A stretch of DNA of 64,000 nt from an uncultured Chroococcidiopsis sp. (GTDB taxonomy: Bacteria > Cyanobacteriota > Cyanobacteriia > Cyanobacteriales > Chroococcidiopsidaceae), in NCBI GenBank assembly GCA_964248365.1, contig CAXTYC010000021.1, positions 24,412-88,411 on the forward strand. The letters are read 5' to 3'. The notes below the pieces were generated by a model, which worked only from the letters and a program-made list of their open reading frames with translations, was not told the origin of the DNA and made no database searches. Position numbers and translations under genes: made by a program. Shown piece after piece: positions 36,872 through 42,637 of the stretch (the first letter of the stretch is position 1; each line of letters begins with the position of its first letter).

Positions 36872-36904
36872 TTGCAAGTGGCAATTAATGATATACCATA
36901 AAAA

Positions 36905-37012
36905 CGGCGGGTGCGGGACTTGAACCCGCAATCCCCAAGATGGTGGAGATGTTACCGATAACCCTAAATTCTTCGTCCCCTAAAGGCAAGGATTGAATCA
37001 GGGAACCCGCCA
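36905..37012 (-). ncRNA. tRNA-like / Y-RNA-like unit 0 (downstream of Ro gene; no D-arm, no encoded CCA)
   Basis: Minus strand: acceptor TGGCGGGT/ACCCGCCG, T-arm GCGGG-TTCAAGT-CCCGC, core CTTG-CCTTTAGGGG-ACGAAGAATTTAGGGTTATCG. Confidence 0.75.
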
Positions 37013-37129
37013 TATTTTAAGAAAGCAGGGGGATCTGGGGGAGCTGGGGTAGCTGGGGGAGAGTTATCAGTGACCAGTAACTCCTGACCAGTGACCCAAT
37101 CCCAACGCCTCTAGCCCCTAGCCCCTCTT

Positions 37130-38740
37130 TCAGAGTTCGTCTGTCGCCAGCATCTGGATAATGCGAGGTATGCCAGGATCGAACCCTCCCAAATCCCAAG
37201 AAAGTGGATCTTTTGGATCTACGGGGGTAATTTGGTAAGGTGCAAGGGTAACATACACCGCCTTGATGTTGGGATTCACTTTTTCGCGGTACTTTGCTAG
37301 TGCTTGACACGGATGTTGATAACTATTTCCCCAGCTTTCAGAATCAGTCCAGAAGCAGATGACATCTGCCTTGAACTTGTTGTTAATCATCCAGTCGTAA
37401 GCTACAGATGCATCTGTACCGCCGAAGTTTTGGTTACTAGCTTTCTTCACAGCTGAACTGAAACTATCTTTGCGGGTAATGCCCAAGTCGCGGAAGTCAG
37501 TAGCAAAACCACGAATTATATAGTTTTTCTCGGCTTTGGCTGTAGCAAGTGCCATTGTGGTAACAATCTCACAGCAACTAAGTCCTACTGACTGCACAAC
37601 GCCGCAAGACATTGAACCAGAGACATCAACAGCGTGCATAAACACTTTGCCTGTTGGTTCTACAACGTCGAAAGACATCTCTAGTGCTTTTTCGAGGATG
37701 TCCACGATGCGGGGTACTGGTGTCCAGGTTTTCTGGCTACGTCCTAGCTTACCGCCAGACTGATAAGTCTTGAGTGCCTTGAGGACATCAATAGGGTGAA
37801 TTCGCCCTTTACGCAGATGTTCTCTGTTGTTGAGGACAGATTCAACTCGATCTAAGTTGCCACACATATTTGCAACTTGCAATACACCTAGTTCAGTCAA
37901 GGAACCAAGGTTTCGTAGCATGGCCGTAATGGGCATTTCTAGAAATAGCAACTCCCAAGCCTGCTTGTCCATTTTAGCAACGGGTGCAGCCATTTCATGG
38001 GTTAAGCGTCCTTTGGCGATCGCTTCATGCACTTGATTCGGATTTCGCTTCAGCCACTCATACCACCAAATCTGCGCCAAAGCTTCATTTGGAATTTGGG
38101 CGGGTAATTCCTCCCAGCCTTTAATTACCCACTCAAATAGCTGTTGGTGATCATAGGTAGGTGGTTTGACATGGAACAAGCGCAAAGCATCGCGGTGGGA
38201 AAAGTCTAGACGTTGCTGATATTTCAACAACTGATAAGCCAAACCTTTGACATCTTCCCTTGATAACCAACTTTTACCCGCCTCCCGTACAATTTTGCCA
38301 AATCCGCGTAGAGATTTGGTGTAGTTCAGCCATTCGTAAAAGTGGATACCAGTACGGACAACTTGTGAGAAGATTTCGGTAAAAGCTTTTTTGGCTGCTG
38401 GGGAATCTCCCATCGATAGCAGTACTAAAGCGAATATCGGCGCACTGTTGTTAATGGCGCGTCCATCGCTAGCATAGAGGATTTCTTGGGCTACACGGGC
38501 AGGATCGAGAGCGATCGCTTCTCTTAAAACCGAGACAAAATCATCTGTTAATTCCTGTTTACCAGCGTAGTATGTGCTTTTTGCTGTACCAATCAATAAG
38601 CAGCGCCGCAGCATCTGCCATATACCAGCATCAAACATGAAACCGCCAGAACGTCCCTGGATCATTTCAGCTTCCCGTCCAGGGATGGGCTGAGTTTGGG
38701 GCATACCAGTATTTTTTTTATTGAAGAATTTGTAATTCAT
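37130..38740 (-). CDS. rsr: Ro60-like RNA-binding protein (TROVE + vWA domain)
   Basis: N-terminal PQTQPIPGREAEMIQGRSGGFMF, LRRCLLIGT..TYYA, MPITAMLRNLGSLT, IHPIDVL, vWA MIDAS AVDVSGSM, GGTDAS, WTDSE. The start is ATG 38740 (MNYKFF); the ORF-track extension to 38827 runs into RNA unit 1. Confidence 0.93.
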   Translation of the reverse strand: MNYKFFNKKNTGMPQTQPIPGREAEMIQGRSGGFMFDAGIWQMLRRCLLIGTAKSTYYAGKQELTDDFVSVLREAIALDPARVAQEILYASDGRAINNSAPIFALVLLSMGDSPAAKKAFTEIFSQVVRTGIHFYEWLNYTKSLRGFGKIVREAGKSWLSREDVKGLAYQLLKYQQRLDFSHRDALRLFHVKPPTYDHQQLFEWVIKGWEELPAQIPNEALAQIWWYEWLKRNPNQVHEAIAKGRLTHEMAAPVAKMDKQAWELLFLEMPITAMLRNLGSLTELGVLQVANMCGNLDRVESVLNNREHLRKGRIHPIDVLKALKTYQSGGKLGRSQKTWTPVPRIVDILEKALEMSFDVVEPTGKVFMHAVDVSGSMSCGVVQSVGLSCCEIVTTMALATAKAEKNYIIRGFATDFRDLGITRKDSFSSAVKKASNQNFGGTDASVAYDWMINNKFKADVICFWTDSESWGNSYQHPCQALAKYREKVNPNIKAVYVTLAPYQITPVDPKDPLSWDLGGFDPGIPRIIQMLATDEL

Positions 38741-38770: not shown

Positions 38771-38775
38771 GAAAG

Positions 38776-38931
38776 ATGGCAGGGCAGGAATTGAACCCGC
38801 GACCAGTGGATTAACGATAACCCTCAATTCTTCGTCCTTTGCAGGCTAGGTTGTGAACTAGTAGGGGCGGGTTTAAGAAAAATACTTGTAGCCACACAGA
38901 AAATTCAGCCAAACCCGCCCCTACCTGCCAC
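38776..38931 (-). ncRNA. tRNA-like / Y-RNA-like unit 1 (D-arm region occupied by a REP hairpin; no encoded CCA)
   Basis: Acceptor GTGGCAGG/CCTGCCAT, T-arm GCGGG-TTCAATT-CCTGC, core CTAG-CCT-GCAA-AGG-ACGAAGAATTGAGGGTTATCG. Confidence 0.65.
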
Positions 38932-39112: not shown

Positions 39113-39285
39113 TGGTGTAGCGGGGCGGGATTTGAACCCGCGACCTCTCGAACCCTAATCGATAACCCTCATTCTTCGTCCTTTGCAGGCTAGGGAGCGA
39201 GTTTGCGGTGTAGCTGTGCTTCCCGCAAAACTCGCGTGGTGAACAAGGATGTTTTAGCGCTCTACCAAACTGAGCTACCCGCCAC
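39113..39285 (-). ncRNA. tRNA-like / Y-RNA-like unit 2 (class I-type D-arm, encoded ACCA)
   Basis: GTGGCGGG-TA-GCTC-AGTTTGGTA-GAGC D-arm; T-arm GCGGG-TTCAAAT-CCCGC; 3' CCCGCTAC-ACCA; core CTAG-CCT-GCAA-AGG-ACGAAGAATGAGGGTTATCG. Confidence 0.85.
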
Positions 39286-39363
39286 ATAACAATTTTGGAT
39301 GTGTAGATTTTGGATTGAATTTCTCGCTACGATGCGATCGCCTAATAGTAAGTTGAAGGAATT

Positions 39364-39508
39364 TGGTGTGGCGAGGCGGGATTCGAACCCGCGATCAAGT
39401 TTCCTCGATACTGCTTTTCGATAACCCTCAATTCGTCGTCCTTTGCAGGCAAGGTATGAATAAAGGATGTTTTGAAGTTGCGCTTTCAACCACTCAGCCA
39501 CTCGCCAC
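39364..39508 (-). ncRNA. tRNA-like / Y-RNA-like unit 3 (class II, Ser-like D-arm and long variable arm, encoded ACCA)
   Basis: Perfect acceptor GTGGCGAG/CTCGCCAC-ACCA; D-arm GCT-GAGTGGTTGAA-AGC; variable arm ATCGAG-GAAA-CTTGAT; T-arm GCGGG-TTCGAAT-CCCGC; core CTTG-CCT-GCAA-AGG-ACGACGAATTGAGGGTTATCG. Confidence 0.85.
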
Positions 39509-39521
39509 ATGGATTGTTTTT

Positions 39522-39585
39522 GTAGGGGCGGGTTTAATAGGGATCTGTGCGGTTACACAGAAAATTTAGAAAAACCTACCCTTAC
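39522..39585. repeat. REP-like hairpin in the spacer between units 4 and 3
   Basis: GTAGGGGCGGGTTT...AAACCTACCCTTAC. Confidence 0.75.
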
Positions 39586-39599
39586 AGGGTTTTGAATTA

Positions 39600-39731
39600 T
39601 GGTGTGGCAGGGCAGGAGTTGAACCTGCGACTTTTCGGTAAAAACCGACTACTCTTACCGATAACCCTCAATTCTTCAGCCTTTTCAGACAAGTTAGCGA
39701 TCAAGGGATTTGCTACTGAGTTACCCGCCAC
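39600..39731 (-). ncRNA. tRNA-like / Y-RNA-like unit 4 (degenerate D-arm, encoded ACCA)
   Basis: GTGGCGGG/CCTGCCAC-ACCA; T-arm GCAGG-TTCAACT-CCTGC; variable hairpin TCGGT-TTTT-ACCGA; degenerate core CTTGTCTGAAAAGGCTGAAGAATTGAGGGTTATCG. Confidence 0.8.
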
Positions 39732-39744
39732 ATAAATTGCTTTT

Positions 39745-39809
39745 GTCGCGGCGGGTTTAATAGGGATATCTGCGGTTACACAGACAATACCCGAAAAACC
39801 CGCACAGAC
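39745..39809. repeat. Diverged REP-like hairpin in the spacer between units 5 and 4
   Basis: GTCGCGGCGGGTTT...AAACCCGCACAGAC. Confidence 0.7.
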
Positions 39810-39827
39810 AGGGTTTTGAAAATAATT

Positions 39828-39973
39828 TGGTGTAGCAGGGCGGGATTTGAACCCGCGTCTCCCGCGTGATAGGCGATAACCCTCAACTCTTCGTCCCTTA
39901 GGGGTCGTCCCGTTTGGGCAAGGTTTGAATCAAGGATGTTTTTGGTGTTCTGAGCCTCTAAACTACCTGCCAC
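39828..39973 (-). ncRNA. tRNA-like / Y-RNA-like unit 5 (first in the array, encoded ACCA, duplicated Ro-like hairpin)
   Basis: GTGGCAGG/CCTGCTAC-ACCA; D-arm GTTT-AGAGGCTCA-GAAC; T-arm GCGGG-TTCAAAT-CCCGC; 11-bp stem ATCCTTGATTC/GAGTTGAGGGT. Confidence 0.85.
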
Positions 39974-40193: not shown

Positions 40194-40284
40194 TAAGAGC
40201 TAGGCTCAAACGAGGTTCTCTACTAGTGCAAGACTAGAAGAAGTGATTGGTGAATTGCTTTGTATTATTAATGTAGTATATGTA

Positions 40285-41538
40285 TTATTGAATGTCAAGT
40301 AGTTGGGAAGCAAATGCGATCGCTTCCTCTACTGTCGAAATTTTGCCTTCAATTTGTGCCAATTGAATTTGCAGCAAAAGTTCGCCTACAAGGGGACTAG
40401 ATGGCAATTTCAAGGCTTGCATTAAGTATTTACCAGTAATTAGCGGTGTGGGATGAGCGATTGGATCATTGGGGGTTAGATAGCGGTTAATCAGAGGGGA
40501 AATTGCGTATTGTGACACCCCAGCCGCTAGTGCTAGCACTACTACAACACAGAAAACTACTCCGGCTGTACGAAAGAAGAAAAATTGCTCGGCTAAAGTC
40601 ATCCGTTCTGGTGCAACTGTTTGTAGTTGCGGTAAAAGTTTAAGAGTTGTAGTTACACCTTTAATTTCAGCCCGACTGTAGGTTAAATTGATTAACTCAA
40701 GTTCTGCTATTTCTGGATTTGGGTTGACAAGTGTTGCAAGTTTTGCTACAGCTAACCAAGTTGTTTTGACGGTATCGCGCACTGCTTGGCAGAGTTCTGC
40801 ACTTAGTTGAGGATAGGTTTGTGTAAGTGTGGCTGCTGCACAGTCAACGGCTGCTAGTAGAATAAGATGCGATCGCGTTGCACTGGGAAACCATGTTGCA
40901 AGTAACCCATCTTCCCAAGCAGCTTGTATCCAAGGTGTTCCCTTAGCACTACTCAGGAGATACCCTAGTTCTACTCTTACTCTTTCAGCTGCAACGTTTG
41001 CCAAAAGAGGCGCAAGCTTGCGAATAACTGAGTGTGTATCCGGTTCGATGAGAAAATTTAACTGCCCAGCTTGGCGATATGCTCGTAATAGTCGTAAGGG
41101 ATCATCTTGCAGATTTGTAGGTGATATCATCCGCAGTAAACCCTGTTGCAAATCGGCGTAACCTTGCAGCGGATCGATAATTTCTCCGGTGTGAGGGTTG
41201 TAAGCGATCGCATTAATTGTATAATCTCGTCTTTGTAAATCAGTTTCTAGGCTAGATCCTACTGCTAGAGCAAAATCAACGGTTGCGTGTTTGAATACAA
41301 CTCTGGCAATCTGCCGCTGGGCATCAAGCAAGACAAAACCAGCTTTATAATGATGAGCGATCGCATGGGCTGTCTTTACTGCATTACTTAGAAGTACAAA
41401 ATCTAGATCCAAATACTCAGATTTTCTGCCCAGTAATGCATCGCGCACTGCACCACCTACCAGGTAAGCTGGTTGTGGTAGCCATTCGAGGCTAAAACAC
41501 CAAGTTGCAGGAGATAATGCAGTTAGAGAGTTAGACAT
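40285..41538 (-). CDS. tRNA nucleotidyltransferase (CCA/CC-adding enzyme family)
   Basis: AYLVGGAVRDALL, DLDF, DLQRRDYTINAIA, DDPLRLLRAYR; ATG at 41538. Confidence 0.92.
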   Translation of the reverse strand: MSNSLTALSPATWCFSLEWLPQPAYLVGGAVRDALLGRKSEYLDLDFVLLSNAVKTAHAIAHHYKAGFVLLDAQRQIARVVFKHATVDFALAVGSSLETDLQRRDYTINAIAYNPHTGEIIDPLQGYADLQQGLLRMISPTNLQDDPLRLLRAYRQAGQLNFLIEPDTHSVIRKLAPLLANVAAERVRVELGYLLSSAKGTPWIQAAWEDGLLATWFPSATRSHLILLAAVDCAAATLTQTYPQLSAELCQAVRDTVKTTWLAVAKLATLVNPNPEIAELELINLTYSRAEIKGVTTTLKLLPQLQTVAPERMTLAEQFFFFRTAGVVFCVVVVLALAAGVSQYAISPLINRYLTPNDPIAHPTPLITGKYLMQALKLPSSPLVGELLLQIQLAQIEGKISTVEEAIAFASQLLDIQ

Positions 41539-41621
41539 TGCAATAAAAATCAACCCAGCAGCTAACTAATAACTACCATAGGTAAGCTAAATTAGCATCA
41601 ATAGCCTCTGGAATCGGTTCT

Positions 41622-41870
41622 ATGTGTATTTGCGTGAACTGCCATTATGTAGATCGTTGCATGACCTATCATGCAGTAGAATACCAACATCAACAGCCCC
41701 ACTTAACTGAAACACCAGATTTTGAGCCAAATGAACCCAGCATTAATGTAAACATCCGCCCTATGGAGGATGTAATCGAGATGGAATGGGATGTAGTGGG
41801 TTGTCTTAGCTTTAAACGTGAGACGGGCAAATGGGCGAAGCTGCGACCTGGTGAGTTAGTGCCTACTTGA
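41622..41870 (+). CDS. ycf34: Ycf34 family Fe-S protein
   Basis: MCICVNCHYVDRCMTYHAVE...EWDVVGCLSF. Confidence 0.92.
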   Translation: MCICVNCHYVDRCMTYHAVEYQHQQPHLTETPDFEPNEPSINVNIRPMEDVIEMEWDVVGCLSFKRETGKWAKLRPGELVPT

Positions 41871-42031
41871 GAGGGGCTAGGGGCTAGAAAGGGGAAAAGG
41901 GAAAAGGGAAAAAGGTAAAGGGTAAAGGTAATTCGTAATTTGTAATTCGTAATTAATCATTCTCCCCTGATTCCCCCTCTCCCCTCTCCCATTCTCCCCA
42001 GCCCCCAGCCCCCAACCCCTAGCCCCTAATT

Positions 42032-42637
42032 ATGAAATACGGTCTTGCTATCCACACTACTAGTCCCGAACTAGGACTTGCTCTGAGCAATGAGGCAGGT
42101 GACTCGCGCTGTTCTACCTGGGAGTTGGGGCGATCGCTTGCTAGTCATTTGCACCACCATCTAGCTGAATTTATCCAGCCTCAAACTTGGTCAGATCTAG
42201 CTTTCATTGCTGTTGCAAAGGGACCTGGTGGATTTACTGGAACTAGAATCGGTGTTGTCACTGCCCGTACTCTGGCTCAACAGTTGGAGATTCCTCTGTT
42301 TACTGTTTCCACCTTGGCGGCTGTAGCTTGGTCGAATTGTCAAGAGGAAACCGTTGCTGTCCAAATGCCTGCCCAACGCGGTCAGCTATTTACAGCTATC
42401 TATCAAGTAATCCCAGGTGCGGGTTTAAATCCGTTGTTGCCTGATACAGTCATGATACCCCAGAAGTGGCAACAAACTCTCAACTCATGGTCTACTGGAT
42501 ATCAGCTAATTCAAGCCGAAGGTGGACTGGGTAGATCAGTTACGAGCTTGTTAGAACTAGCATACCTAGATTGGCAACAAGGAAAGCGCCTCTTTTGGTC
42601 GGAAGCACTGCCCTTTTACGGTCAACATCCAGTTTAG
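42032..42637 (+). CDS. tsaB: tRNA threonylcarbamoyladenosine biosynthesis protein TsaB
   Basis: LAIHTT, AVAKGPGGFTGTRIG. Confidence 0.9.
   Translation: MKYGLAIHTTSPELGLALSNEAGDSRCSTWELGRSLASHLHHHLAEFIQPQTWSDLAFIAVAKGPGGFTGTRIGVVTARTLAQQLEIPLFTVSTLAAVAWSNCQEETVAVQMPAQRGQLFTAIYQVIPGAGLNPLLPDTVMIPQKWQQTLNSWSTGYQLIQAEGGLGRSVTSLLELAYLDWQQGKRLFWSEALPFYGQHPV

Follow-up and report, generated by a model that had tools for sequence, protein, structure and literature searches.

Organization of the rsr locus

The window, a 64,000-nucleotide (nt) stretch of an uncultured Chroococcidiopsis sp. (GenBank assembly GCA_964248365.1, contig CAXTYC010000021.1, positions 24,412 to 88,411), carries an array of tRNA-like RNA units directly upstream of rsr, the gene for a Ro60/TROVE protein. 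The array lies on the same strand as this TROVE/vWA gene and less than 4 kb from it. Window coordinates are used throughout, and units 5, 4, 3, and 2 of a first-pass annotation of this DNA are here called uA, uB, uC, and uD, respectively. Unit bit scores are from an RNA covariance model that we built from 22 units. The features of the locus are as follows.

40261..40298, minus strand: promoter TTGACA-17-TACATT (-35/-10 at 40298-40270) plus three overlapping TAHTACA repeats, the middle one being the reverse complement of the TrcR box TGTAGTAT
39828..39973, minus strand: uA, Glu-like tRNA body with a duplicated Ro hairpin in the 5' strand of the anticodon stem and the loop CU-AUC-AC; 8/5 branch (acceptor/T stem), G3·U, ACCA; 103 bits
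39600..39731, minus strand: uB, Lys-like body with the Ro module within the D loop and an anticodon arm with a 6-nt loop; G3-C, ACCA; 80 bits
39364..39508, minus strand: uC, Ser-like D arm and long variable arm, with the anticodon loop replaced by the Ro module; G3-C, ACCA; 102 bits (Rfam tRNA model, 38.8 bits)
39113..39285, minus strand: uD, generic D arm, Ro module plus an extra hairpin, Pro-type loop UU-AGG-GU, and canonical AGGUC variable loop; G3·U, ACCA; 103 bits
38856..39103, unstranded: three palindromic repeats of ~85 nt, members of a dispersed family with 15 blastn matches in the genome, 10 of them outside the array
38772..38931, minus strand: uE, a damaged last unit just before rsr, with palindromic repeats in place of the D arm and without encoded CCA; 56.5 bits
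38747..38769, minus strand: additional hairpin of the Ro type, UUGCCC-GAAA-GGGACGAG, whose end is 6 nt short of the rsr start codon; candidate site of autoregulation
37130..38740, minus strand: rsr, Ro60/TROVE protein of 536 amino acids (aa); Pfam TROVE and vWA_Ro60 above their cut-offs
36900..37013, minus strand: sixth unit just 3' of rsr, with a Ro module and T arm but no D arm or CCA, followed by a U run

The Rsr protein also matched NCBIfam Rsr (NF041674) with an E value of 2e-84 and 284 bits, below the cut-off of 900. The sixth unit is kept in homologs, in which the last unit before rsr usually ends in C-UUU. We propose that promoter, Y-RNA array, rsr, and terminal RNA form one predicted transcription unit. 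Two further copies of the palindromic repeat lie in spacers (39517-39594 and 39740-39817), and this repeat family has destroyed the D arm of uE. Short open reading frames (ORFs) across the array were taken as chance.

Order of the tRNA elements

We compared acceptor pairing within a unit to pairing with the next unit, using halves detected without reference to acceptor pairing. This yielded 362 3' halves in 112 of 122 loci, of which the 243 with a detected 5' half were kept. Among 52 distinct neighbor pairs under a symmetric filter, within-unit acceptor pairing won in 41, tied in 10, and lost in 1, while at positions 27 to 29 and 41 to 43 it won in 14 of 20 pairs, with 5 ties and 1 loss. Furthermore, the 5' and 3' halves agree on the top or tied-top tRNA type in uA (Glu), uB (Lys), and uC (Ser). 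The permuted order of YrlA, with the T arm 5' of the D arm and a loop-closed acceptor, was not found in these units, and in published permuted seeds read by hand the would-be acceptor forms only 4 of 8 pairs (Calothrix) or 6 of 8 (Stanieria). These comparisons show the unit, as a predicted structure, to be an unpermuted tRNA body that runs from the acceptor 5' strand through the D arm, anticodon arm, variable loop, and T arm to the acceptor 3' strand. The mature RNAs are probably in tRNA order as well.

The acceptor branch described in the first-pass annotation, with GTGGC starts, an 8-bp acceptor on a 5-bp T stem, and an ACCA end, is found in all of uA to uD, with 8 of 8 acceptor positions paired when G·U is counted. 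Likewise, the G3·U pair was confirmed in uA and uD (uB and uC have G3-C), and a U2-A pair occurs in all four units. The assignment of uC as Ser-type also stood, as its D arm scores best against tRNA-Ser and a long variable arm capped by GAAA lies at 39408-39395. The tRNA-Gly of the window is, as claimed, without encoded CCA; since just 2 of 42 ARAGORN tRNA calls of this genome encode CCA, its presence in 4 of 4 units is indeed notable. ARAGORN, run without introns, called none of uA to uD as a tRNA.

Among homologous units with both halves detected, 227 of 243 form all 8 acceptor pairs (240 form at least 7), and because of this we do not regard the 8-bp acceptor as chance. In an alignment of 22 units, 95.4% of cells pair, 16 pairs change on both sides, and such double-sided changes occur at 7 of the 8 acceptor pairs; the score of the whole structure was reached by 0 of 500 shuffles, a result inflated by kinship among the units. 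An 8-bp acceptor with a CCA end in a His-like register was seen in 33 of 240 homologous units. The acceptor is GUGG-like irrespective of the anticodon-type loop, and therefore the identity sets mismatch the anticodon.

Ro module and anticodon-type loops

Inserted in the tRNA body is a Ro-type module of ~45 nt, consisting of a 10-bp stem and a bulged helix, with a GNRA tetraloop connecting the two helix strands. A GNRA sequence occupies the Ro hairpin loop in 202 of the 207 matched units, compared to 7 of 214 unmatched ones. We read the bulged helix as similar to the vertebrate Ro site shown in Figure S4 of Chen et al. 2014 (PMC4201824). The YrlA motif GNCGAAN0-1G is exact in uA, uD, and uE and present as one-base variants in uB and uC; the YUAY element is UUAU in all units; and tRNA-like T and D arms are present, except that the D loop of uB is split by the module and the D arm of uE is lost. 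The insertion point varies, being the anticodon stem in uA and uD, the D loop in uB, and the anticodon loop in uC and in Leu- and His-like homologs, and in a further homolog layout the anticodon loop caps the module stem. The module provides part of the anticodon stem. An insert between positions 26 and 27 was dropped, since positions 27 to 29 pair with 41 to 43, and positions 27 and 28 form 24 of 32 Watson-Crick pairs, compared to 12.7 in shuffles. Given this anatomy beside rsr, we consider it very likely that the units are Rsr-bound Y RNAs.

The suggestion that the array RNAs lack an anticodon was largely wrong as anatomy, as uA and uD carry 7-nt anticodon-type loops (CU-AUC-AC at 39872-39866 and UU-AGG-GU at 39158-39152, respectively). 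A Lys-like anticodon arm with a 6-nt loop is present in uB, leaving uC as the only one of the four without a clear anticodon loop. After UUAUC, 157 of 214 units keep the exact canonical spacing of 24 nt, which accommodates an anticodon arm and a 5-nt variable loop. The 198 of 208 units with at least 3 of 4 stem pairs gave 42 distinct 7-nt loops. Of these loops, 41 have U33 and 39 a purine at position 37, with G37 following G36 in 9 of 11 loops, compared to 1 of the 31 others. Nine of the 42 are identical to loops of the genome's own tRNAs, and the mean distance to those loops is 1.05, compared to 1.61 in column shuffles, with 0 of 2,000 shuffles as close. Within each of the Pro, Gly, and Lys types, units differ in the wobble base, and in arrays with two or more loops the amino acid types are all different in 77 of 78 cases, which are not independent by kinship. 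These 7-nt loops are also recognizable in several published YrlA seed rows (Streptosporangium, Mycobacterium, Gordonia, and phage ET08). Both the likely nature of the units as Ro60-bound Y RNAs and the presence of an anticodon-type loop in most of them go beyond the first-pass annotation.

Promoter and hairpin at the rsr start

Conservation of the array promoter was assessed in related loci, the best 80 of 348 taken from one scan and mainly Nostocales, to which all counts out of 80 refer. The -35/-10 promoter is present in 75 of 80 and the box plus repeat in 69 of 80. In Anabaena, tandem TrcR boxes over the -10 element and start site lead to induction by translation stress (PMC10272220). Tandem boxes are placed at the -10 element and start site of the array in the same way as in the TrcR regulon of Anabaena PCC 7120 (trn operon and rtcB; PMC10272220, PMC8421152), and the genome contains a TrcR-like ORF. 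The conserved boxes suggest that TrcR probably controls the array promoter. In the main-text portions of these two articles covered here, TROVE, Ro60, and Y RNA are not mentioned.

The TrcR-like ORF (G000:C8:27684 onward, plus strand) encodes 112 aa with Leu44 and lies behind the exact published autoregulatory promoter motif of trcR; its assignment is based on that motif and Leu44 rather than on protein alignment. There are also two RtcB genes, neither adjoining rsr (L123, G000:C20; L124, G000:C64), and the C64 copy is preceded, at a distance of ~400 nt, by a tandem TAATACA repeat in the opposite orientation.

The Ro-type hairpin at the rsr start has a folding z score of -2.3, and 3 of 200 shuffles fold as well. 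It is present in the 40 commonest types of 5' untranslated region listed for 81 loci and covers GGGAG in most homologs listed. It may serve in autoregulation.

Proposed role of the array

We slightly favor a reading in which a stress-induced precursor would give rise to Y RNAs in tRNA order, through which Rsr would be linked to an assortment of tRNA faces acting as baits. TrcR would repress the array promoter until translation stress lifts the repression, and RNase P and 3' trimming would free RNAs of 125 to 175 nt with open acceptor ends. Rsr might then bind each module, with surplus Rsr binding the copy at its own start codon and curbing Rsr synthesis. The resulting particles would show a small panel of tRNA faces (elbow, anticodon loop, and CCA end) that might bait enzymes that attack, process, or repair tRNA, tethering them to Rsr. 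A uniform acceptor branch of 13 bp, the sequence of which is independent of the anticodon, may keep the units from normal decoding. A decoy role has been proposed for YrlA (PMC7790460), and the decoy idea of the first-pass annotation is reasonable; that bait or decoy is the main role we put forward with reserve, as an idea a little short of probable.

Several observations weigh against the proposed reading. The order test dropped 119 of 362 3' halves for which no 5' half was detected (D-less units, D-loop insertions, and missed D arms), and a cruder earlier parse gave 42 wins, 10 ties, and 5 losses among 57. In a fold of the whole precursor, the probability of within-unit acceptor pairing is 0.00 in uB and 0.18 in uD (0.72 in uA and 0.78 in uC), and the two halves of uD disagree on tRNA type. 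Most loci are from Nostoc relatives, and therefore the counts overstate independence. The loops could be vestiges of recent tRNA capture, and the anticodon nuclease tested on Salmonella YrlA did not cleave it (PMC7790460). Finally, genome-wide counts give no clear enrichment of the tandem TAHTACA pattern (10 occurrences, compared to 2 to 8 in shuffles), which is why the case for TrcR rests on conservation, and a promoter scan yields no more sites than chance.

The array might instead serve as a plain tether of the RYPER type, in which the tRNA fold would do no more than provide a nuclease-resistant scaffold between Rsr and PNPase, with the loops and CCA ends left over from the tRNA genes that received the module. 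In favor of this explanation, such a role has been shown for a Deinococcus Y RNA, Salmonella YrlA copurifies with Rsr and PNPase, and many units have decayed loops or ends. However, the U33, R37, and G36-G37 rules are kept across families while the wobble base varies in Pro-, Gly-, and Lys-type units, and arrays keep different loop types side by side. We see the plain tether as a serious but minority possibility.

Might the units be aminoacylated?

A possibility that we hold to be rather unlikely, and one compatible with Rsr binding, is that the G3·U/ACCA units uA and uD would be alanylated by AlaRS; uC, in turn, would possibly be charged by SerRS or LeuRS. Charging would protect the 3' end or let the particle engage EF-Tu or the ribosome. 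The bacterial Ala set comprises A73, G2-C71, G3·U70, G4-C69, and G20 (PMC9976931), and uA and uD have A73, G3·U70, and G4-C69, i.e., three of the four acceptor elements. They lack G20, and the genome's own tRNA-Ala calls likewise have U20. Like tRNA-Ala and transfer-messenger RNA (tmRNA), they share G1-C72, G3·U70, G4-C69, and A73, but they differ in that U2-A replaces G2-C, the stem has 8 bp, and a tmRNA-type reading frame is missing (PMC9976931).

Across homologs, the pair at position 3 goes along with the 3' end. ACCA is found in 89 of the 92 units with G3·U (in 10 of the 13 distinct types) and in 2 of the 131 with G3-C; most of the latter finish with C or, as tRNA-His does, with CCA directly. 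Among 27 units of a second module layout, ACCA is kept in 11 of 13 with G3·U but in 3 of 12 with A3-U, whose ends are mostly decayed. G3·U with ACCA occurs in 6 of 12 families sampled, and allo-tRNAs with an 8- or 9-bp acceptor and G3·U70 are active suppressors in E. coli (PMC5389517). Conversely, U2-A replaces G2-C71 in 218 of 240 units and the complete Ala set occurs in 0 of 240, whereas 3 of 3 tRNA-Ala calls of this genome have it. G3·U is moreover a minority state, present in 92 of 240 units and in 13 of the 77 distinct types of acceptor, and its combination with ACCA is lacking in 148 of 240 units and in 6 of the 12 families. The branch has 13 bp, compared to the 12 bp read by EF-Tu. Duplication or gene conversion of a single 3' string could also account for the coupling of G3·U with ACCA. 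The pattern fits selection for AlaRS recognition in a subclass of units, but it also fits a duplicated 3' string.

For uC, charging finds some precedent in tRNA-Sec, an 8/5 tRNA that SerRS charges. The 8/5 branch is shared by uA to uD, the long arm is found only in uC, and all four have A73 in place of G73. However, tRNA-Sec is serylated at ~1% of the level of tRNA-Ser and relies on G73, absent in uC, and the A73 and U2-A of uC contrast with the G73 and G2-C71 of the bacterial Ser set.

An extra acceptor pair, as in the units, is also known from tRNA-Sec (8/5), tRNA-His (G-1:C73), and allo-tRNAs (8/4 and 9/3) (PMC5389517, PMC9976931), and allo-tRNAs similarly mix Ala or Ser identity with unrelated anticodons (PMC5389517). 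The 12-bp branch of allo-tRNAs (8/4 or 9/3) is nevertheless 13 bp here, and the units differ from these three groups in lacking G73 and a UCA anticodon and in carrying an inserted Ro module.

At its boldest, this line of thought would make the G3·U/ACCA units stress-induced, alanine-charged tRNAs with Pro-, Gly-, Cys-, and Asp-type loops. Released or gated by Ro60, they would enter ribosomes stalled on those codons, insert alanine, and rescue translation by deliberate mistranslation. We think this highly improbable, and the weaker form, in which the units are simply aminoacylated Y RNAs, is more plausible though still doubtful.

Permuted RNAs or spliced tRNAs as unlikely alternatives

In the published parse, the mature RNA would be a permuted YrlA that begins at a unit's Ro motif, crosses the spacer, and reaches the D arm of the following unit. 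These loci are classed as YrlA by Chen et al. 2014 (PMC4201824) and drawn there as permuted, with a long closed acceptor; Table S1 of that study includes Nostoc punctiforme (Npun_F0915) and Synechococcus PCC 7002 (G0140). The Rfam YrlA model matches 39240-39408 in the permuted register at 35.6 bits. The units are so alike that permuted pairing still averages 6.3 of 8. Yet that Rfam score is below the gathering score of 69 (RF02553), and the same model gave no match in six homologous loci. Three separate tests of pairing or type side with within-unit pairing, the supposed ends are joined by a conserved GNRA loop, arrays start with the 5' strand of an acceptor and finish with a 3' strand, and the spacers are variable, repeat-rich DNA. 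We consider the permuted parse improbable for these arrays.

That the units are interrupted true tRNA genes, from which the module would be excised and the halves rejoined by RtcB into working tRNAs, is hardly credible: the bodies resemble real tRNA types and RtcB is in the genome, but the acceptor is of the GUGG type whatever the anticodon, with mismatched identity sets, the insertion site varies, and the module supplies part of the anticodon stem. The four sequencing runs covered consist of contigs with 5 to 6% shared words and, at very thin coverage, contain no joint that would remove just a module.

Distribution and neighboring genes

A search for Rsr across 401 genomes of the phylum was positive in 42. 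The RNA model matched 12 of 151 genomes at an E value of 1e-12 or below, and all 12 are Rsr positive. Among the arrays listed, there are 4 to 6 units per locus. One array unit (G038:C1:5202356-5202485) lies ~5.5 kb from rsr, beyond the 4-kb limit of the published survey. A distant Rsr (33% identity; L122, genome G208) lies beside a tRNA cluster, the last RNA of which is a permuted YrlA; its acceptor is closed, and its UUAUCG is followed by a CU-UAU-AA loop. Other distant Rsr loci (33 to 37%; L116 to L121), from other classes of the phylum, have short Ro-type motifs upstream, and the RNA model found no tRNA-order unit in them except for one tRNA-sized match in L118. A search of viral contigs with a single Rsr query returned no Rsr relative. 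Two abutting odd tRNA calls at G000:C19:83933-84083, Leu-CAA and "Ile-TAT," the second with encoded CCA, may be what is left of a tRNA array.

Directly upstream of the array promoter is a gene for a CCA-type tRNA nucleotidyltransferase (40285-41553, minus strand), a paralog of which (32% identical) is on contig C12. Such a gene adjoins the array in just 3 of 80 loci, and we therefore excluded it from the system. Also near the array is tsaB (42032-42637, plus strand), which functions in t6A37 biosynthesis. MicroRNA matches at 41868-42022 arise from low-complexity sequence and were rejected.

Relation to YrlA and significance

The array RNAs share with YrlA (RF02553) their position beside rsr on the same strand, the GNCGAA(N)G motif, the YUAY element, and conserved T and D arms. 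Chen et al. 2014 built their second model because some cyanobacterial RNAs seemed longer in the acceptor stem (PMC4201824), and the seed of that model, YrlA-II, includes Calothrix, Stanieria, and Gloeocapsa rows with the GAGGGUUAUCG core of the array. The family is therefore already on record, and the question is how to parse it. In published YrlA the order is permuted, the acceptor is closed, and just the 5' strand of the Ro site can be recognized, whereas the units described here follow tRNA order, often encode CCA, and have both Ro strands joined by a GNRA loop. The "V arm" of published YrlA corresponds to the anticodon hairpin of these units. Wang et al. 2018 (10.1101/312249) describe YrlA with a long closed stem, without a free CCA or an anticodon loop, and state that its role and effector are unknown. 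In Mycobacterium smegmatis, YrlA is cut by RNase P and receives CCA in vivo, and aminoacylation was raised there as a possibility (PMC4201824); it has a 7-bp stem and is a two-piece RNA, whereas the units here have 8 bp and would be continuous.

A literature search did not return the tRNA-order parse, the anticodon panel, the link between TrcR and Rsr, or the start-codon hairpin, although Sim and Wolin 2018, Sim et al. 2020, and Burroughs and Aravind 2016 were outside its coverage and may contain part of this. In the portions covered, a 2026 preprint on tRNA mimics names YrlA once and cyanobacteria never, and PMC12135203 and PMC6333295 have no bearing on the parse.

If the parse given here is true, cyanobacterial YrlAs would be unpermuted tRNA bodies with a Ro handle, and what has been called their variable arm would be an anticodon arm. 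The 7-nt loops in published seed rows would then bear directly on the proposed origin of YrlA from tandem tRNAs. The same parse would offer testable handles in the form of defined ends, an anticodon panel, and an inducer (translation stress or loss of trcR), together with a candidate autoregulatory site and a natural contrast between G3·U and G3-C units for charging.
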